Shown here: positions 6,049 to 38,991 of the stretch, piece after piece | Layout: the number at the start of each line of letters is the position of its first letter | Numbering within the stretch: the stretch's first letter is position 1 | From: Gammaproteobacteria bacterium | Lineage (GTDB): Bacteria; Pseudomonadota; Gammaproteobacteria; SZUA-152 | NCBI GenBank assembly: GCA_021647705.1 | Contig: JAKIUF010000004.1 | Span: forward strand, 74,878-138,877 | Direction of reading: 5' to 3' | DNA length: 64,000 bases | Program-made: the position numbers and the translations under genes | Notes under the pieces: model-generated | The model's database searches: none | Seen by the model: the letters and a program-made list of their open reading frames with translations, nothing else | What the model was told of the DNA's origin: nothing

Positions 6049-6996
6049 TTATTTTTCAGACTCAAAAACTGCTTCCAAAAACCTTGTTTTCGATATGTTA
6101 CTGACGTCCTCCGCAATTTGCATCATTTGCCAATGTTTGTTCACATTATCCGTGCCAGGAGTATCGATGTGATATTTCCAGAAACGCCAACAAGAGGTTG
6201 CAGCTGCCGCGTACTGAACAAATATTTGTAAGGTTTCTTTTTCTGTCTGCTCTAATTTTCTGACTTGTTGGTATCCACTGACCAGAGCGTGCGCCTTATC
6301 AAGCACCACGGTCGCATTTTCGACACACAGCCCGAGAATTCCCATCCCTAGATCAAATGCTTTGTAATAGTGACAAGCTTCTTCAAAATCGATAATTGCT
6401 CTGAATTTTTTTTCCTCAAATATCACATTGTCATAAAACAAATCACCATGAATCAGCCCACAAGGCAGGCTGCTCAGGATGTTTTGTTTAAGATAATCGT
6501 GCTGTTTCGCCAGCCAGGATTCATACTCTGTATTGATATTACGACCAATGACATTTGAAAAAACCTGTAGCCCGTAGGCGTGTTTATCAGGTAAAAAATC
6601 AGGTGCAGGCACCTCATGTAATCGGGCCATTTCCATGCCCACCTGGTGCAACATATCATCATCCAGATTTTCACAAACCTGTCCATTTACATAGGCCTTC
6701 AACATCACAGGTTTATTCCTGTATTTTGTGATGACAGGTTGATTTATGGGAGGCAACAGACGTGTAGCGGGAAAATTGTGTGTTTTAAGCAGTAACAGTA
6801 AATGGCCCATGTTGGCCGCATCGCTCAGGCTTTTATCATCGCAAACGGTTAATACATATTTACCATTCCCAGTGTGCAACAAATAACTGGAATTGCCTGC
6901 GCCACCGTCAATAACCTCAAAGCGGGTGACCACAAGGTTATAATCGGCGGTTATTTTCTGGATGTCACTTTGATGCAGTTGTGTATATCTGGCCAT
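6049..6996 (-). CDS. phosphotransferase, APH / homoserine kinase type II family
   Basis: LIHGDLFYDNVIF..IIDFEEA has the kinase-fold HGD and DFE motifs; 315 aa. Confidence 0.7.
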   Translation of the reverse strand: MARYTQLHQSDIQKITADYNLVVTRFEVIDGGAGNSSYLLHTGNGKYVLTVCDDKSLSDAANMGHLLLLLKTHNFPATRLLPPINQPVITKYRNKPVMLKAYVNGQVCENLDDDMLHQVGMEMARLHEVPAPDFLPDKHAYGLQVFSNVIGRNINTEYESWLAKQHDYLKQNILSSLPCGLIHGDLFYDNVIFEEKKFRAIIDFEEACHYYKAFDLGMGILGLCVENATVVLDKAHALVSGYQQVRKLEQTEKETLQIFVQYAAAATSCWRFWKYHIDTPGTDNVNKHWQMMQIAEDVSNISKTRFLEAVFESEK

Positions 6997-16702: not shown

Positions 16703-17170
16703 ATGCCAACAGAAAACGATAATATTTCGGCCATTCTGCAAAAACTGCCGGTATTTGCCGGGCTGACGGAGGATGAATACGGCCATATCCAGAAAATTTG
16801 CCAGCCTGCCCGTTTTAACGATGGGGAAACCCTGTTTGTGGAAGGCGACAGCAGCCCCTGCATGTATGTATTGCTGTCCGGCGACGTGCAATTGCGCACC
16901 CATAATCAGGGACCGATTCACTCGCTGAACCCTGGGGAACTGTTTGGTGAGATCGGTTTCATCAGCCAGCAAGACCGCACGGCCACCGCCATCGCGCGCG
17001 CGCGCGCTGTATTGCTGCAAATTAACTACGATGTCTTTCAGAATCTAGTACTACGCGAGCCACGCATCAGCTTCACCATCATGCGTAACATCATCATGAA
17101 TCTCTCCAACCACATCACACGTATGAACAAAGGCGACGTGCTGGATTTTATTTCCACGGACAACGCTTAA
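16703..17170 (+). CDS. cyclic-nucleotide-binding domain protein
   Basis: GELFGEIGFIS...RTATAIA is the cNMP-binding signature. Confidence 0.75.
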   Translation: MPTENDNISAILQKLPVFAGLTEDEYGHIQKICQPARFNDGETLFVEGDSSPCMYVLLSGDVQLRTHNQGPIHSLNPGELFGEIGFISQQDRTATAIARARAVLLQINYDVFQNLVLREPRISFTIMRNIIMNLSNHITRMNKGDVLDFISTDNA

Positions 17171-17284
17171 ATGTGAATTAAGGGCTAAATTATTCTGTTT
17201 TAGGCATATGCAGCAAAGTTTGGGGAATGAAAACCAATGATTTTATTCGTTTGGATATTTTTAGCGCTTAATTCACATTTAAAT
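17166..17284. mobile_element. short MITE-like copy (terminal repeats only, ~119 bp)
   Basis: CTTAAATGTGAATTAAGGGCTAAA ... TTTAGCGCTTAATTCACATTTAAA; lacks the CTCTGCG core. Confidence 0.7.
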
Positions 17285-17347: not shown

Positions 17348-17938
17348 TTATCGTATTAATGGTTCATTTTGTACCGCCGCCAATCGATCATCCGCAGTTT
17401 GTATCGTCACTGGCAAACAATTGGAAAGAACCAATTGTGGTGGTTCAAAAGAGAAAGTGAAATTACCGGCCTTGCGCAGCCCGCTAAGCCCCAGAATATG
17501 TCGTGTGCGACCAGGAAACACAGCCGCCTCCACATCATGCAACTCGCAATCGTCACCCAGGCGGATAACATCAAGACGATACACCGCAACCCGCTCACGC
17601 TGACCATTGGCGAGCACACCCGTAAGATCTCTAACAAAACTGGCCCGACCCTGCTCCTGCAATATTGCCAAACTGTGCTCATCAATCGTGTTGTAACTGG
17701 AGCCGGTGTCAACCAGGAAATCGACCCGACCAATCCCGGCAATCAAACCCTGTACATAAAAGGTCTTAACACGTTTTTCCACCATGGGGACAATATGCCC
17801 TGGCGGCACAGCTAAAGCCACGGAGCCCCCCCCCATGCCAAACAACAATACCCCACAGAGCAATCGTTTTGTTAAATTCACCCGCCATACCTCGTTTTGT
17901 TGCATACCACCGCGAGCAGGAAGCGGTAGCCTTACCAC
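17348..17938 (-). CDS. retropepsin-like aspartic protease (clan AA) with signal peptide
   Basis: FLVDTGSSYNTI is the DTG active-site motif; N-terminal hydrophobic signal. Confidence 0.7.
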   Translation of the reverse strand: MVRLPLPARGGMQQNEVWRVNLTKRLLCGVLLFGMGGGSVALAVPPGHIVPMVEKRVKTFYVQGLIAGIGRVDFLVDTGSSYNTIDEHSLAILQEQGRASFVRDLTGVLANGQRERVAVYRLDVIRLGDDCELHDVEAAVFPGRTRHILGLSGLRKAGNFTFSFEPPQLVLSNCLPVTIQTADDRLAAVQNEPLIR

Positions 17939-18157
17939 AAGAATAACGACTCAACCAACGTGATCCTGAAGGGATATCGCACTGCAAGGCAGGAAAACAA
18001 GTGTAATTGGAGCAGGAAGCGACTTACAATGCCTTCGCCCACATGAGCCACCAAGCCTTGAATATTATGACTAAGTCCAGGGATGTTGAGCACAAAAAAG
18101 CGATAAAAATATTGATGCGCAGAGTAATTTCAGACTAAGTTTTTTGGAGTTAATGAC

Positions 18158-18616
18158 ATGATTCACCACTACTCAATAGCAGTAAGTAATACGAAAAAAG
18201 TTGCCGATATTCTTTCCCGGTTGTTTGAAGGATCAGTTTCAGAATTTGGTCCTTATAAAAATTCGTACATGGTCTGGTTAGGAGACGAATATGGTACTGC
18301 CATAGAAGTGTACCCCGATGGCACTGAAATGATCCCGGACACAGAAAACGGGCAAGCCAGGTTTGCGCATAATGCGACACACTCTGGTTTTACTGCCACA
18401 CACGCAGCGATATCGATTAAACGAACGAGGGAAGAAATCTATACATTTGCAAAAGAATCAGGCTGGCGGGCTTTAGAATTATCGCGAGGCGAATTTAACG
18501 TAATCGAGTTTTGGATAGAAAACAAAGTAATGATTGAGCTGCTAACTCCTGATATGGCAAAAAATTATTTGGCGGTAACTGACAAATACAAATCAATTTC
18601 GACAACACCGGTTTAG
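18158..18616 (+). CDS. VOC/glyoxalase-like protein
   Basis: MIHHYSIAVSN...RLF N-terminal pattern typical of VOC folds. Confidence 0.45.
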   Translation: MIHHYSIAVSNTKKVADILSRLFEGSVSEFGPYKNSYMVWLGDEYGTAIEVYPDGTEMIPDTENGQARFAHNATHSGFTATHAAISIKRTREEIYTFAKESGWRALELSRGEFNVIEFWIENKVMIELLTPDMAKNYLAVTDKYKSISTTPV

Positions 18617-18641
18617 TAAGATTGAGATTTGAATTTTATAC

Positions 18642-19322
18642 TTACGCCGCAACTATGGCTTCAAAACTGCCAATCCATGCATTGAAAACCGGGCATTTTT
18701 CTCTCATTTGAATGACACCAATACGAGTTGCTATGGTAATACCAAGTGTTGTTTTAGAAAATTTTTTGTTTTTTGACCACTCGTCAAGATGTTTGGAAGG
18801 AGCTGTTTGAGGGCTGTTGTTAATAGCTTCTGGTTCGCCGTTTTGAGCTAAAACTCCTGAAATTTTGTGTTCATCAACATCAAGTTCCGCAGCAAGAATT
18901 TCACTGTCACTGAATAACAATGCTTCAAATTCATGGATTGCCATATAGGGAATAAACCTTCGTTCAGATTGTTGCTCTTTAAAAAGTGTATTAACTTCTG
19001 TTTTAGTTGCTTGGTTAATGCACGCTGCTATTTGTTCTGGCCCCGCATTGGGTGAAACTAAATCGATACCTGGCCACTCTTTGATTCCATAATAATCCAC
19101 CAAGGTTGTAACATAAGTATCTTGCTGCTGTTTCAAATGCAGCCCAAGATCTTTTTTGATGCGTTCAAAGCGAACATCGCCACCTTTTTGACCCGGCTTG
19201 CTCACTTGGGTGGCGACCATAAAAACCATCTTTTTTGCTAAATAAGGTGCAAGCACAGATTCCACAAAAATCTGTTCTGTTTTTCCCTCAACGATGGCAA
19301 CGACATTAATAAAATTACTCAT
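18642..19322 (-). CDS. DUF4276-family protein (TOPRIM-like), partner of the upstream ATPase
   Basis: Start taken at MSNFINVVAIVEGKTEQIFV, 4 nt after the ATPase stop; VEGKTE is the conserved DUF4276/TOPRIM-like N-terminal motif. Confidence 0.65.
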   Translation of the reverse strand: MSNFINVVAIVEGKTEQIFVESVLAPYLAKKMVFMVATQVSKPGQKGGDVRFERIKKDLGLHLKQQQDTYVTTLVDYYGIKEWPGIDLVSPNAGPEQIAACINQATKTEVNTLFKEQQSERRFIPYMAIHEFEALLFSDSEILAAELDVDEHKISGVLAQNGEPEAINNSPQTAPSKHLDEWSKNKKFSKTTLGITIATRIGVIQMREKCPVFNAWIGSFEAIVAA

Positions 19323-20421
19323 ATACCGGCCCCCCGGCAATGACATTTTTCGTCCAAAGCTCACCCACTGAATAATTTTCCAACCATTCAGAAAAGTCAG
19401 CTTCATTTAGCCTTTCAAACGATGAAGCCCCCTCTTTTCGGTTAACCACAATAATGTCATTAATGCCAAATTGGTCAACTAGTGCTGGGGACTGGGTCGC
19501 AACAATCACCTGAGTACGCTGTGCTGCTTGCTGAACCAGCTCTGCTAAAATCACAATTGCAGCAGGGTGTAGCCCTAACTCTGGCTCATCGATAATAATA
19601 GCGGAAGGTGGATTCGGTTGTAATAATGCTGTCGCAAGACAGATGAAACGTATAGAACCATCCGAAAGGTGATAAGGCTGCATAGGATAATCAGAGCCTT
19701 TTTGTGTCCAACTAATGTTGACTTCTTCTTTTTCACCACTTTGCCTGGGTTCTAATATAAAATCATCAAAAAATGGGGTAACCAAGCGTATAGCATTTAA
19801 TATTTCCTTGTATTCGCTGTTATGTTGGCCTCTTAACTTAAGCAAAAATGCACCCATATTTGATGCGTCTGTTCGCAGTACTTTGTTATCTTGCACGATC
19901 CCATAATGACGAATACCCGCTGTTGAGCCAGTATCATGGAAATGGTAAATCTGCCAGGATGCAATTGAGTTATAAACGGGCTGTGAATTTTTAGCGTCGG
20001 CTTTTTTATTTTTAACCTCGGCCACCATATGCGATGACCCCTCATCGCTGTCACCAAGCTCCCACCATTTTTTTAATCCGTCTTGATAATATCGTGCTTC
20101 ATCTTCAATAGCACAGGAATCACTCGGCGTTGCTACAAGCTTGAAGCGAAACCCACGAGGACCAAATCGTGTTTCAAACACCATTTTTTTGGTTACTTTT
20201 CTGCCGTGAAAAAGCAGATCACTGGCACCGCCATTATCTCTAACATAGCGATTCAAGTTCCCATCGATCAAAGCACTTAACATTTTAAAAAAGGAGATAA
20301 AGTTACTTTTACCCGCACCATTCCCCCCCACAATCACATTGAGGTTTTTTAATTCAAAGTCAACCAATTCACAGATTGATTTAAAGCCTTTTATGGTTAA
20401 TTTATCTAATGAATCAGTCAT
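19315..20421 (-). CDS. ABC-type AAA_21 ATPase (OLD/RecF-like)
   Basis: Walker A VIVGGNGAGKSNF; Walker B plus signature IIIDEPELGLHP; ATQSP D-loop region. Confidence 0.8.
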   Translation of the reverse strand: MTDSLDKLTIKGFKSICELVDFELKNLNVIVGGNGAGKSNFISFFKMLSALIDGNLNRYVRDNGGASDLLFHGRKVTKKMVFETRFGPRGFRFKLVATPSDSCAIEDEARYYQDGLKKWWELGDSDEGSSHMVAEVKNKKADAKNSQPVYNSIASWQIYHFHDTGSTAGIRHYGIVQDNKVLRTDASNMGAFLLKLRGQHNSEYKEILNAIRLVTPFFDDFILEPRQSGEKEEVNISWTQKGSDYPMQPYHLSDGSIRFICLATALLQPNPPSAIIIDEPELGLHPAAIVILAELVQQAAQRTQVIVATQSPALVDQFGINDIIVVNRKEGASSFERLNEADFSEWLENYSVGELWTKNVIAGGPVYE

Positions 20422-20657
20422 GGAACCTCCTAAATTGATTTCACTTCGGTGCCGGATATATCATAAAAAGCCATCGGTGTTTTTACCTGTGCCGATATCG
20501 ATCATTTTCATAACGCCGCGAAAATGATCATCTCTTTGATTTACTCACCGTGCCAAATTTAACGATTAGAAGATACCTGCTCAGGGTATTCGTTCCGAAT
20601 GATTTCATTTTCAGAAATCACAACCGCAGTACCCGTTTTTTTGAGTAATTTCTTACT

Positions 20658-21422
20658 TCAGGCTTCCGCACCCAAAACAGCGCGCACCACATCAAGATCC
20701 TTTTTGGTATCCACCCCGGCGAGCGGTACTTCAACTGCTTCGGCAACGTGGATACGATGCCCATGCCACAACACACGCAGCTGCTCGAGGGATTCCGTTT
20801 GCTCCAGCGGGCATGGTGACCACTGGCTGTACTCACGCAAAAAACTCGCACGATAAGCATAAAGGCCAATGTGCCGAAAGTGCTCACCATGATCGGGAAA
20901 AATTTCCGCCGTATTGGCAAAAGCCTCCCGGTCCCAGGGAATACTGGCGCGGCTGAAATAAAGTGCCATGCCCTGTCGGTCTTTCACCACTTTCACTGCG
21001 TGCGGATCAAATAATTCGGCCGTGGTGGTAATCCGGGTGCAGACGGTGGCCATGCTCGCTGCGGTACAAGCCGCAAGATTTTCCGCCACCTGATGGATCA
21101 CTGCCGAGGGCATCAATGGTTCATCACCTTGCAGATTCACCACAATCTGGTCGTCGGCAAATGTTAATTTTTCTGCTACTTCCGCAATACGATCAGTACC
21201 GGATTGATGTGCCACCGAAGTTAAACAGGTTTCAGCACCAAATTGCTGTGCGGCGGCTTCAATTTGTGAGCTGTCTGTAGCAATAATCACCTGTGCTGCA
21301 CCGCTTTCCAGCGCACGCTCGTAAACATGCTGAATCATCGGTTTGCCTGCAATATCCAGCAGCGGTTTTCCCGGCAGGCGGGTTGCCGCATAACGTGCAG
21401 GAATGATGACGCTGAACTTCAT
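20658..21422 (-). CDS. kdsB: 3-deoxy-manno-octulosonate cytidylyltransferase
   Basis: [16 protein letters not shown]...GDEP motifs; 254 aa. Confidence 0.9.
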
Positions 21423-36314: not shown

Positions 36315-36621
36315 CTTAAATGTGAATCAAGTATGAAAACACGCTACTTTTAAAAGTCACTGAGCATTTAACATAGAAATCGCAGAGACGCAGAGAGAAA
36401 CAACACTAAACACTCTGTGCACTTTGCGTCTCTGCGTCTCTGCGACCTCTGTGTTTATAACACGCCACTGAGCAATGCCACGACAACCTAACTTCCCAAT
36501 GTATTGGAACGCTTATCCGGGAATGTAAACCTCTGGAGGTCCGACTAAAAACAGGTCGGAATGATAGTGTTTTCAGCAAAAATAGCTAACAAAATTATTT
36601 AGCGTTTAATTCATATTTAAA
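36315..36621. mobile_element. MITE-like element, full copy (~307 bp)
   Basis: CTTAAATGTGAATCAAG...TTTAGCGTTTAATTCATATTTAAAG terminal repeats; core nearly identical to the 14685 copy (cccaatgtattggaacg, ctctgcgacctctgtgtttataacacgccact). Confidence 0.8.
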
Positions 36622-37309
36622 GAAATGACTTAAAGAGCCAAACAAAAGCCCTGCTGCTATTAAACATATCGGCAATTTGATAAGTAATTATAAAAAACAC
36701 AGGATAAAACATTTCGGGCCTGGCCTTTGGGAAATGATGAGCTGATTGAGCGAGCTTCTCAATAAAATTATTTGAGTTACACAGTAAAACAACGGCTATA
36801 CCAACAAATGCGCCGCCAATGATATCAGTAGGGTAATGTAGGCCCAAATATACCCGTGGAAAGGCTATAAATAGCGTTGTGTATACAAGCGAAAATATTC
36901 CAACTTTTTTAGATATATAAAACATTCCAGCGGATAAGGCATAAAATAATACTGCATGATCACTGGGAAATGAAGACCATCCTTCCAATGCTGTTATCTG
37001 CATAGTATAGGGAAGTGTAAAATCCAGGCTTTCCTCATGTATAGGACGAGGCCGGAACGGTAACAACATTGCCAAAGCTCTTGCTAAAACCATAGCAATA
37101 AAACAACTAAACAATGTAGAAATTAAATGTACCTGAACAGCCGATTGATTTTTATCAACCCGAAACCAACCCCACCAAAAAATAGCGAGCAAAACACCAC
37201 CTTTAACCAGGTGATTTTCTGAAATAAACTTTATTGTAGAATCAACAGTCCATGACTGTTGGGAAAATTGATTGAAAAAATCAATTATTATTGAGTCAAA
37301 TAAATTCAT
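36617..37309 (-). CDS. PAP2-family phosphatase
   Basis: SFPSDHA and GLHYPTDIIGG are PAP2 motifs; the stop codon lies in the MITE terminal repeat. Confidence 0.8.
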   Translation of the reverse strand: MNLFDSIIIDFFNQFSQQSWTVDSTIKFISENHLVKGGVLLAIFWWGWFRVDKNQSAVQVHLISTLFSCFIAMVLARALAMLLPFRPRPIHEESLDFTLPYTMQITALEGWSSFPSDHAVLFYALSAGMFYISKKVGIFSLVYTTLFIAFPRVYLGLHYPTDIIGGAFVGIAVVLLCNSNNFIEKLAQSAHHFPKARPEMFYPVFFIITYQIADMFNSSRAFVWLFKSFL

Positions 37310-37361
37310 TACAATCCCATCATTGCGTTTAAAAAAAGAAACTAAAATTATTATTAATATT

Positions 37362-38489
37362 TTATCTGCTACCGACTAACTCATAAATTTCATTCTTAAT
37401 ATTGCTGACATAGCTTTTCTCAGAAAACTTTTTATCAACCATTTCCTCACCGCACAATCCCATTTCCAACCTTAGCTTATTGGATGATGCAAGACGCTGT
37501 ATATATCTTGATAATTCATCTTTATTATTTTCTTTAAATAAAAATCCGGTTCGACTATGTATTATGGTTTCTTTTATGCCGGTGCCATTTGTACCTATAT
37601 TAGGCAACCTACAAGCCGATGCCTGCAATAATACCAAACCCAATCCTTCTTCATTTGAAGCCAATATATTGACATCAACAACTTGTAAAAAATATTCAGC
37701 CACACTATCGACATAACCTAAAAATAATATCGAATCTGTTAATCCTCTTTCTTTTACGATCGTTAGGTATTTTTCTTTTTCTGGGCCATCCCCAATAAAT
37801 ACAAGCTTAATATTAGGGTTTGTTTTTTTAACTTCTTCAAAAGCATTAATCACTAATCCAACGCCTTTATATTCCCCGACAAAACCAACCTGAGAAAATA
37901 CTACATCAGCAGAATCTATTCCCAATGCATTTCTATATCGGCATTCCCTTTTATTTTTTATTGCATACACATCAATATTATCAATACCAAGGTAAATGAC
38001 TTTACCGTCCAGGTTAGCCTTATATTTAGAATGATTTGCAGTGAATTGGCTTGGAAAAAATACTCTATCTGCCAATTTAACAAGCCAAATATAATAATAT
38101 CTTTTTGGTGCAGGATGATGAAACTGGCAAATAAGAGGGATTTTTATTATTTTCTTGAGTGGGACAGCTAATTGACAGGGTCTTCCACCATTAGCATAGA
38201 GTAAATCTATTTTTGACCTCTTACACAGGTTTAACAACCAACGAAAAGCACGGACATATTGAAATAACGGAAATGATGCGTAACTACCCTCAAACATAAA
38301 CTCAGGAAATTTTCGCAAATAACATTCAATATTAATTGATTTCAGTTTTAATAAAAAAACCTCGCTATCACAAACGACAATTGGATAAAAAACACTTTTA
38401 TCCAAGCTCTTAAGTACAGTAATAAGCGTGAACTCTGTTCCTCTTATTTGGTTTCCACCGCTATGTAAAAATAAAATATTTTTTTTCAT
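37362..38489 (-). CDS. glycosyltransferase family 4
   Basis: C-terminal GT4 E..E region (SNEEGLGLVLLQASACRLP). Confidence 0.75.
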   Translation of the reverse strand: MKKNILFLHSGGNQIRGTEFTLITVLKSLDKSVFYPIVVCDSEVFLLKLKSINIECYLRKFPEFMFEGSYASFPLFQYVRAFRWLLNLCKRSKIDLLYANGGRPCQLAVPLKKIIKIPLICQFHHPAPKRYYYIWLVKLADRVFFPSQFTANHSKYKANLDGKVIYLGIDNIDVYAIKNKRECRYRNALGIDSADVVFSQVGFVGEYKGVGLVINAFEEVKKTNPNIKLVFIGDGPEKEKYLTIVKERGLTDSILFLGYVDSVAEYFLQVVDVNILASNEEGLGLVLLQASACRLPNIGTNGTGIKETIIHSRTGFLFKENNKDELSRYIQRLASSNKLRLEMGLCGEEMVDKKFSEKSYVSNIKNEIYELVGSR

Positions 38490-38991
38490 TTATGTTTTAT
38501 CACTGTAAAAACCCAACAAATCACCCTACAGAAACCTGTAAAACAATCAGCCCGAGGAGACTAAATGAAATGCCATGCTTAATTTTATAGCTATAAATAA
38601 TAATCACTAATCTTCGTGTTTTGGTAAAAATAAACACAACCATAGAATAAATAAAGCATGAAATAAAATCGAAACGACTACGAGCAGTATAATATTTGTT
38701 TCTTCCCAGCCCCGATGAAGCACTAAAATTAATTCAATATGCTATAGAAGATCTACAACAATATCTACTTATGAATTAGTCATTAAAAAGAATGGGTGAG
38801 TAAATTTATTTACACTTAAAAGTTCAGTGATAATAAAAACGCGGATAAATTTCTATAAAAATACATACAACTGATTTTTTTGCAAAACCATTCGCATTCT
38901 GCGATTACTCAAAGAAAGTTATCACTAACTCCGAGCATGAGATTAATATAATTCCTTGTTTTCATTGATCTAAAATAATTCTATTGCCTGC

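Follow-up and report, generated by a model that had tools for sequence, protein, structure and literature searches.

A 64-kb stretch of contig JAKIUF010000004.1 from the genome assembly of an uncultured gammaproteobacterium (GCA_021647705.1), here called the window, carries a pair of AT-rich genes for an ATPase of the ATP-binding cassette (ABC) type and a DUF4276 protein, placed between kdsB and an aspartyl protease gene. The locus raises the question of whether this pair is a phage defense cassette that acts on its own, and if so, to which of the known ATPase-nuclease systems it is related and how it might work. The original prediction, made from the sequence alone, was that of a candidate phage-defense pair, and a check against the PADLOC models agrees with it and gives the pair a name, HEC-01. 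Our preferred reading, to which we assign a probability of about 0.6, is that the pair is a horizontally acquired, autonomous HEC-01 cassette, in which, by analogy with better characterized systems, the ATPase would sense a phage cue and regulate a DUF4276 metal nuclease that is switched on by this cue.

The gene pair belongs to HEC-01

Both genes are located on the minus strand at the positions where they had been predicted, the ATPase gene (HEC-01A, 368 amino acids) at 19315-20421 and the DUF4276 gene (HEC-01B, 226 amino acids) at 18642-19322. The ATPase matches the PADLOC model HEC-01A (PDLC04175) with E=1.9e-142 and 472.6 bits, over residues 3-365 of 368 and profile positions 4-362 of 363, and the DUF4276 protein matches the model HEC-01B (PDLC04188) with E=5e-68, over residues 4-223 and profile positions 12-226 of 230. 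Since both proteins match these models in full length, the pairing corresponds to an already named candidate defense system; the A model, the B model, and the adjacency on the same strand are all found here, and at the level of sequence the pair belongs to HEC-01. The gene order is also the same as in HEC-01, in that the gene for the ABC ATPase precedes that for the TOPRIM-like DUF4276 protein on the same strand. In Pfam, the ATPase is assigned to AAA_21 (E=5.7e-41, with the entire profile covered) and its partner to DUF4276 (PF14103, E=7.4e-54), the family that had been suggested for it. Weaker PADLOC matches of the ATPase were obtained to AriA, mad3, PDC-M07A, NsnB, AbiLi, Old, GajA, and PtuA. 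The DUF4276 protein matched, at E<=10, HEC-01B models and, weakly, PDC-M31B only.

[quoted passage not shown] DUF4276 is also assigned to the TOPRIM superfamily in two further papers, which connect it with Mad4 of the MADS system. The profile of this domain matches 3,676 protein clusters at 50% identity.

The two genes had been thought to lie 4 nt apart, but the sequence reveals an overlap of 8 nt, ATGAGTAA (19322-19315, minus strand), in which the stop codon of the ATPase gene overlaps with the start codon of the DUF4276 gene. The start codon at 19322, which gives the protein the N-terminus MSNFINVVAIVEGKTE, is favored by the alignment of the homologs, and the alternative upstream ATG at 19346, which is chosen by some gene callers, would make the overlap longer still. 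The junction ATGAGT(A/G)A is common to this locus and all six homologous loci with which it was compared (7/7), and the conserved overlap fits a model in which the two genes may be translationally coupled and their products may form a stoichiometric complex. The pair is preceded by an AT-rich leader (20422-20657, minus strand) with a GC content of 0.39, which contains an AGGAGG Shine-Dalgarno sequence 7 nt before the ATG of the ATPase gene and one promoter-like site at 20556-20527. The leader segment at 20558-20652 is a frameshifted remnant of the 3' part of a 63-codon open reading frame (ORF) with the sequence MMSSDEKETNIKQ.... This ORF is intact in one of the related alleles described below (L106:130-321), where an ATGATGA junction similar to those in toxin-antitoxin (TA) modules marks its overlap with the end of another partial ORF. 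Neither of these two ORFs in L106 has a match in Pfam.

Variable presence at a chromosomal hotspot

The pair is located in a variable segment between kdsB and the aspartyl protease gene (17976-20666), the limits of which were set by BLASTN searches with three empty-site alleles (L092, L093, and L095) against the window. In these comparisons, the homology ends at 20667 and restarts at 17975. The kdsB genes of the three alleles are 94-95% identical to the kdsB gene in the window and are connected to the protease gene via an unrelated spacer of about 170-190 bp.

When genomes were scanned with kdsB, 80 species-level relatives were identified with kdsB genes that are 51-92% identical, and none of these relatives (0/80) contains the pair within 10 kb of kdsB. 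The closest of the species-level metagenome-assembled genomes are L005 and L006. The contig of L005 stops 18 bp after kdsB, and the contig of L006, the closest informative relative (kdsB 91% identical), is syntenic with the window up to the stop codon of kdsB and unrelated beyond it, with a tail of about 370 bp for which the window has no counterpart. The ends of these contigs would be explained if the assemblies broke at a site that varies between strains. Because both are too short to show the far junction, metagenomes were scanned with the aspartyl protease for near-identical alleles.

The site is found in empty, intact, deleted, and replaced states in close relatives, and the pair is not universally conserved at this locus. 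In L106, the contig of which does not include kdsB, the pair is intact, with an ATPase that is 95% identical, and extra small ORFs are present upstream. L091 (kdsB 98% identical) contains no pair, and has kept 95 bp of the leader and a truncated version of a 152-amino-acid ORF that is located next to the pair in the window. In L111 (kdsB 98% identical; VAPF01068941.1, 1-8075), 6.5 kb of other genes abut the last ~42 codons of a DUF4276 gene. These genes code for an SDR dehydrogenase, a LysR regulator, a 126-amino-acid ORF, and two Fic/DOC-family proteins. The second Fic gene ends (stop codon at 6709) right at the DUF4276 stub (about 6713-6839), so that a HEC-01 cassette was overwritten in this allele. 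The exact ATPase sequence was only found on metagenome contigs with the same neighbors. Pfam scans of the small ORFs in L106 and of the tail in L006 gave no matches, and no direct or inverted repeats, att-like sites, tRNA genes, integrases, or transposases were found at the borders of the island.

Homologs of the pair are scattered among Enterobacterales, Vibrio, Aeromonas, Oleiphilus, Desulfuromonas, Desulfovibrio, Desulfotalea, and Victivallaceae, with identities of 72-93% for the ATPase and 62-91% for the DUF4276 protein, and conjugative plasmids of Desulfotalea and Aeromonas also carry the pair. The identity of the ATPase to its homologs in Oleiphilus and Desulfuromonas is 79%, whereas kdsB is only 56% identical to the kdsB gene of Oleiphilus and only about 56-60% identical to those in the same kinds of organisms as the ones with close homologs to the ATPase. 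A BLASTN search with the pair against complete E. coli genomes yielded no match at the DNA level, and the protein searches listed an E. coli homolog of the ATPase. No DUF4276 homolog was found in phage records, where remote relatives of the ATPase (23-24% identical) were present in three records only. The pair also differs in composition from its surroundings, as the original prediction had noted: the GC contents of the ATPase and DUF4276 genes are 0.395 and 0.413, respectively, compared to 0.51-0.54 in the flanking genes, and the GC contents at third codon positions (GC3) are 0.31 and 0.36, compared to 0.48-0.63. The GC content of the pair corresponds to the 15.6th percentile of 1780-bp segments across the window, and is thus low in comparison to the flanks but not extreme. 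Horizontal acquisition of the pair, as had been proposed, is well supported because of its variable presence among close relatives and the phylogenetic incongruence.

Genomic contexts of the homologs

Close homologs of the pair (64-87% identical) are located inside Hma-like operons, as described for HEC-01. In seven of the 11 close-homolog contexts examined (L086, L087, L088, L089, L090, L114, and L115), the pair is placed exactly between an N6_N4 methyltransferase gene (Mod) and a gene with ResIII and RE_endonuc domains (Res), usually with SNF2 and DUF4391 genes upstream. This layout is the Hma-like arrangement in which HEC-01 was discovered, and the embedded form is present, for example, in Oleiphilus messinensis (CP021425). 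The ATPase and DUF4276 genes are adjacent in all 11 contexts. Genes for other defense-like proteins are located near the pairs in the seven embedded contexts, one of which (L086) is Aeromonas veronii pHX3, and these include an OLD nuclease, SLFN/AlbA_2, Mrr, an HNH gene, RhuM, and an AAA_13 ATPase. In L090, a second AAA_21 ATPase with a 199-amino-acid partner is also encoded near the pair.

Unlike these homologs, the pair in the window is solitary and placed outside any Mod-Res operon, in the chromosomal hotspot between kdsB and the aspartyl protease gene. No match was obtained in the 64-kb window in TBLASTN searches with the SNF2, DUF4391, Mod, and Res proteins of L087 and L088. Another solitary copy, preceded by a helix-turn-helix gene, is present on the conjugative plasmid of Desulfotalea. 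L113 (81-4995), from a metagenome of the same sample series, represents a state between embedded and solitary, in which the pair is 87% identical and follows a Mod gene and a Bro-N gene, directly before tilS and with no Res gene. The ratio of nonsynonymous to synonymous substitutions (dN/dS) in comparison to the L106 allele is 0.098 for the ATPase gene and 0.111 for the DUF4276 gene, with dS values of 0.22-0.28. Ratios of about 0.1 indicate that the solitary pair is maintained by purifying selection.

Sequence and structure of the ATPase

The motifs that had been recognized in the ATPase were all located on the minus strand, the Walker A motif (P-loop) GGNGAGKSN at residues 32-40 (20302-20328), an ABC signature-like motif LSDGSIRF at residues 252-259 (19645-19668), and the Walker B motif with the D-loop, IIIDEPELGLHP, at residues 275-286 (19564-19599). 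The alignment of 48 homologs shows that G32, N34, G35, G37, K38, S39, and N40 in the Walker A motif are invariant, as are S253, D254, and G255 in the signature-like motif. In the Walker B and D-loop region, I275, I276, and D278 through P286 are invariant, and I277 and A287 are nearly so. The H-loop residue is a histidine in many ABC and AAA_21 ATPases. At this position, the ATPase contains ATQSP (residues 308-312, 19486-19500), and Gln310 is invariant in the 48 homologs.

The AlphaFold (AF2) model of the ATPase has a predicted local distance difference test score (pLDDT) of 81.7. A Foldseek search against the PDB with this model gave matches to the heads of SMC, Rad50, and RecN, and to PtuA, Thermus OLD, and GajA, with E values from 1e-13 to 1e-11 and a probability of 1.00 for the SMC, Rad50, and RecN heads. 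Because of these matches, the protein is classified as an ABC-type ATPase rather than one with an AAA+ fold. Sequence searches gave weak PDB matches to AriA, OLD, and GajA, and the N-terminus has weak matches to the SMC_N, RecF, and RecN models. The ATPase belongs to the AAA_15/21 group of ABC ATPases together with those of OLD, PARIS, Septu, Gabija, and MADS, in line with the predicted likeness to the first three of these systems.

Sequence and structure of the DUF4276 protein

The AF2 model of the DUF4276 protein has a pLDDT of 92.9, and its elements are arranged in the order β1 (5-11), α1, β2 (33-39), α2, β3 (69-76), a helical insert, β4 (123-128), and a helical C-terminal half. This predicted order, β1-α1-β2-α2-β3-...-β4, is compatible with a TOPRIM fold. 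Five glutamic acids (E12, E16, E131, E133, and E165) are invariant in a set of 123 diverse representatives (28-60% identity), 122 of which also have D76. A TOPRIM domain has a glutamic acid at the end of β1, and in the DUF4276 model E12 directly follows the strand at 5-11.

The active site of OLD from B. pseudomallei (BpOLD) contains the two-metal ligands E400, E404, D455, D457, T506, and E508 (PMC6755086), five of which have putative counterparts in the DUF4276 protein. E12 and E16 correspond to E400 and E404, and are located in the motif IVEGKTE at the end of β1 (19275-19295, minus strand), which aligns with VEGxTE of the OLD TOPRIM domain in the hhalign comparison. D76 corresponds to D455, the first aspartic acid of the TOPRIM DxD motif, and is located in LVDYYG at the end of β3 (19086-19103, minus strand). 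E131 and E133 correspond to T506 and E508, and belong to HEFEALLFSD after β4 (18906-18935, minus strand), which aligns with the acidic PEED segment of OLD. When the hhalign run was relaxed, the motifs were co-linear, with VEGkTE placed opposite VEGpTE, the D76 strand opposite FDAD, and RRFIPY..HEFE opposite RRLLRY..PEED. The OLD TOPRIM alignment used for these comparisons consisted of homologs to the OLD nuclease of Aeromonas pHX3, and a comparison of DUF4276 to a single OLD sequence was uninformative.

The second position of DxD differs from the canonical motif. Residue 78 is a tyrosine in 109 of the 123 representatives and a phenylalanine in 13, and it is never an aspartic acid, so that residues 76-78 (19089-19097) follow the pattern D-[YFL]-[YF]. 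This contrasts with a published statement according to which the DUF4276 domains of Menshen systems retain DxD. Judged from these alignments, the family departs from the canonical TOPRIM motif.

Comparison with characterized systems

The pair probably works like the OLD, Gabija, PARIS, MADS, Septu, and AbiL systems without being one of them. PARIS, which consists of the ABC ATPase AriA and the TOPRIM nuclease AriB, is also a mobile two-gene cassette with an AAA_15/21 ATPase and a small nuclease. The ATPase matches the AriA model (PDLC02980) with E=1.3e-34 and, in its C-terminal part only, the AriA chains in the PDB with E values of about 2e-5. Furthermore, the PARIS paper places systems with an ABC ATPase and DUF4276 (MADS3-4) in the same ATPase tree. 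However, the partner is here a DUF4276 protein of 226 amino acids instead of a DUF4435 protein (AriB) of about 300 amino acids, with no DUF4435 match even at E<=10, and the ATPase is shorter than AriA (368 compared to 464 amino acids). The DUF4276 model also has no significant Foldseek match to the PARIS structure 8ux9_A (E=0.03, probability 0.12).

The OLD and GajA proteins (class 1/2 OLD) share the fold of the ATPase, with Foldseek E values of 7.5e-13 to 6p74 (Thermus OLD) and 7.6e-12 to 8sm3 (GajA), and the PADLOC models for Old and GajA match the ATPase at E values between 1e-16 and 1e-18. The acidic residues of the DUF4276 protein are co-linear with the metal ligands of the OLD TOPRIM domain. 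In contrast to OLD and GajA, in which the ATPase and the nuclease are fused into a single polypeptide, the two proteins are here encoded by separate ORFs, the DxD motif of OLD is reduced to D-x-Y, and there is no partner similar to the UvrD/GajB helicase of Gabija.

The Mad3-Mad4 proteins of MADS also represent a pair of an AAA_21 ATPase and a DUF4276 protein, in that Mad4 has been called a DUF4276 homolog (PMC12065111), and, like Mad3 and Mad4, most of the close homologs of the pair are located within an operon that contains a methyltransferase gene. The ATPase matches the mad3 models in PADLOC (E=1.5e-28) and the MAD3 model in NCBIfam (NF047739, E=4e-25), but the score for the latter is 88.8 bits in comparison to a cut-off of 420. 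The DUF4276 protein matched no NCBIfam model at E<=0.1, and the window contains no methyltransferase or other MADS genes. AbiL is likewise a two-gene system, in which an ABC ATPase (AbiLi) is combined with a small TOPRIM-like protein of the RloB type (AbiLii). The AbiLi model matches the ATPase at E=1e-20, which is far below the match to HEC-01A. A viral RloB-like protein has the highest template modeling (TM) score among the Foldseek matches listed for the DUF4276 model (TM 0.43-0.46, E=0.22, not significant), but the DUF4276 protein has no RloB match in Pfam. Septu differs in that the PtuA model covers only residues 251-330 of the ATPase (E=1.8e-13) and its partner PtuB is an HNH nuclease rather than a DUF4276 protein.

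Proposed mechanism and alternative explanations

The literature searched contains no established mechanism for HEC-01, as the original prediction had assumed for this pairing. PARIS is the best mechanistic template for an analogy, with an ATPase scaffold that senses a phage protein and releases a nuclease. The ATPase and the DUF4276 protein would form a complex, as in PARIS, OLD, and Gabija, in which the ATPase, dimerizing around ATP, would be the sensor and the regulator that restrains the nuclease. A cue derived from the phage would alter the state of the ATPase and license the DUF4276 nuclease, which would cut nucleic acid, either phage or host DNA or tRNA, and block phage replication, and the infected cell may be sacrificed in the process. 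The family identity of both proteins, their intact catalytic motifs, the conserved overlap, the mobility of the pair, and the purifying selection on the solitary copy are demonstrated by the present data, and we infer complex formation, trigger, substrate, and outcome for the cell, as well as the anti-phage activity of the present copy.

Several observations weigh against the reading of the pair as an autonomous defense cassette with a metal nuclease. Payne et al. observed no protection by their HEC-01 with any of the phages in their panel. In a study of cold-seep microbes, protection of E. coli B by one HEC-01 was reported for at least one of the phages T4, T5, and T7, but no effect size was given for HEC-01, and expression was induced with isopropyl β-D-thiogalactopyranoside. 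No demonstration of nuclease activity, a complex, a trigger, or a substrate was found for any HEC-01 in the literature searched. The autonomy of the pair is not proven, considering that seven of the 11 homolog contexts are embedded between Mod and Res genes and that an eighth is located beside a Mod gene. As for the TOPRIM fold, which the original prediction had assumed and which DUF4276 is assigned in print, the canonical DxD motif is missing, with D-x-Y/F instead in the 123 representatives aligned, and the tests of fold and profile similarity are only weakly positive. The hhalign comparison of DUF4276 to the OLD TOPRIM alignment is marginal (P=0.007, probability 5.5%), and the Pfam model OLD-like_TOPRIM matches the DUF4276 protein with E=0.12 and 13.3 bits, below the cut-off of 23.2, whereas the true OLD protein in L086 obtains 57.7 bits. 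Foldseek searches with the DUF4276 model against the PDB and the viral BFVD gave no TOPRIM match at E<=0.001, and only chance matches were obtained in a PDB profile search (hmmsearch with two DUF4276 alignments). Because of the weak fold and profile tests, the co-linear motifs, and the lack of the second aspartic acid of DxD, a putative OLD/TOPRIM-like metal nuclease is considered likely but not proven.

The embedded contexts suggest that the pair may instead be an accessory module of Hma or type III-like restriction-modification operons, acting as a regulator or a second nuclease, as Mad3 and Mad4 in MADS. The present copy could then be an orphan, separated from its partners by transfer or by their loss, and would have either an altered defense function or none by itself. 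The placement between Mod and Res genes in 7/11 contexts, the Mod gene that L113 keeps beside the pair, the lack of protection by HEC-01 alone in Payne et al., and the decay of the cassette in the L091 and L111 alleles all point in this direction. However, the window contains no Mod, Res, SNF2, or DUF4391 homolog, and yet both genes are intact with a dN/dS of about 0.1, a solitary copy is also carried by the Desulfotalea conjugative plasmid, and the HEC-01 in the cold-seep study was reported to be protective when cloned alone. Moreover, Payne et al. found that many unrelated, independently active systems are embedded in Hma-type operons in the same manner. We regard an accessory role, and with it an orphan state of the present copy, as unlikely. 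A related and tentative idea, to which we attach a similarly low probability, is that the HEC-01 pair guards restriction systems in a PARIS-like manner: the ATPase would sense phage anti-restriction factors or interference with Mod and Res, and would release a TOPRIM nuclease without DxD, with D-x-Y plus an additional ExE/E triad and with a particular RNA (a tRNA, for instance) as its substrate instead of DNA. Such a role would account for the finding that close homologs are almost always wedged between Mod and Res and yet selection acts on the solitary pair.

Stabilization rather than defense is another explanation, in which the nuclease is the toxin and the ATPase the restraint of an addiction or TA-like module that maintains plasmids and islands instead of stopping phages. 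Pfam describes AAA_21 as a 'putative AbiEii toxin, Type IV TA system', conjugative plasmids are among the carriers of the pair, the overlapping two-gene layout is typical of TA modules, and Fic/DOC genes are found in neighboring hotspot alleles. We nevertheless consider this improbable, in that the chromosomal cassette has been cleanly lost or has decayed in close relatives with no obvious compensation, and the nearest characterized relatives (PARIS, OLD, Gabija, and Septu) are defense systems. Some of these act by abortive infection, which blurs the distinction and does not favor a pure addiction module. A role of the pair in DNA repair or chromosome maintenance as part of the core genome of the host, with a RecF/SMC-like ATPase and a nuclease, is suggested by the weak SMC_N, RecF, and RecN matches and by the structural likeness to the SMC, Rad50, and RecN heads. 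This explanation is effectively refuted by the presence/absence data, as the pair is lacking at the locus in 80 of 80 related genomes and also in close relatives (kdsB 94-98% identical), and we regard it as extremely improbable. The atypical composition of the pair, the scattered distribution of homologs that are 72-93% identical over unrelated phyla and plasmids, and the fact that the best matches by far are to models of defense candidates also argue against it.

Other genes in the window

On one side, the pair is flanked by kdsB, a Trm112-like gene, lpxK, and msbA, and on the other side by the gene for a clan-AA aspartyl protease (17348-17938; Asp_protease_2, E=5e-10). The predicted neighbors, a protease gene and a kdsB-lpxK-msbA block, are thereby confirmed. 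This is not so for the VOC label that had been given to the 152-amino-acid ORF (18158-18616, plus strand), which is convergent with the pair inside the variable segment and has a GC content of 0.41. This ORF is of unassigned function and had no significant match in Pfam, NCBIfam, PADLOC, or PDB sequence searches. In L097 and L109, more distant relatives without the pair, this ORF still adjoins the protease gene; a truncated form is left in L091, and none in the empty-site alleles L092, L093, and L095. It is not assigned to the HEC-01 system. An inverted repeat of 23 nt, with arms at 17167-17189 and 17260-17282 that are 96% complementary and located 70 nt apart, is present in the AT-rich gap between the convergent genes for a cyclic nucleotide (cNMP)-binding protein and the aspartyl protease.

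The most AT-rich part of the window is located at about 36600-38500, with a GC content of 0.31-0.34. It contains genes for a PAP2 phosphatase and a group-1 glycosyltransferase, and adjoins STAS, OmpA-like, and polysaccharide-export (SLBB) genes. This region is probably a surface-polysaccharide island.

Significance

The pairing has already been cataloged as HEC-01 and challenged with phages, with mixed results, and the locus described here is a further example of it rather than a discovery in itself. What it adds is evidence that the pair is maintained autonomously, a series of alleles at the hotspot next to kdsB, and the D-x-Y variant across the family, and these points make HEC-01 a reasonable target for mechanistic work. 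Cassettes of the HEC-01 type are widespread, with near-identical ATPases from Enterobacterales to Desulfobacterota, and the two published phage-challenge tests that were found disagree. In the 123 DUF4276 representatives, DxD has been exchanged for D-x-Y/F, while the ExE pair and a further glutamic acid are invariant. The series of empty, filled, decayed, and replaced alleles documents a rapid turnover at a single chromosomal hotspot, and the maintenance of a solitary copy by purifying selection is an argument that the pair functions in the absence of its usual Mod and Res neighbors.

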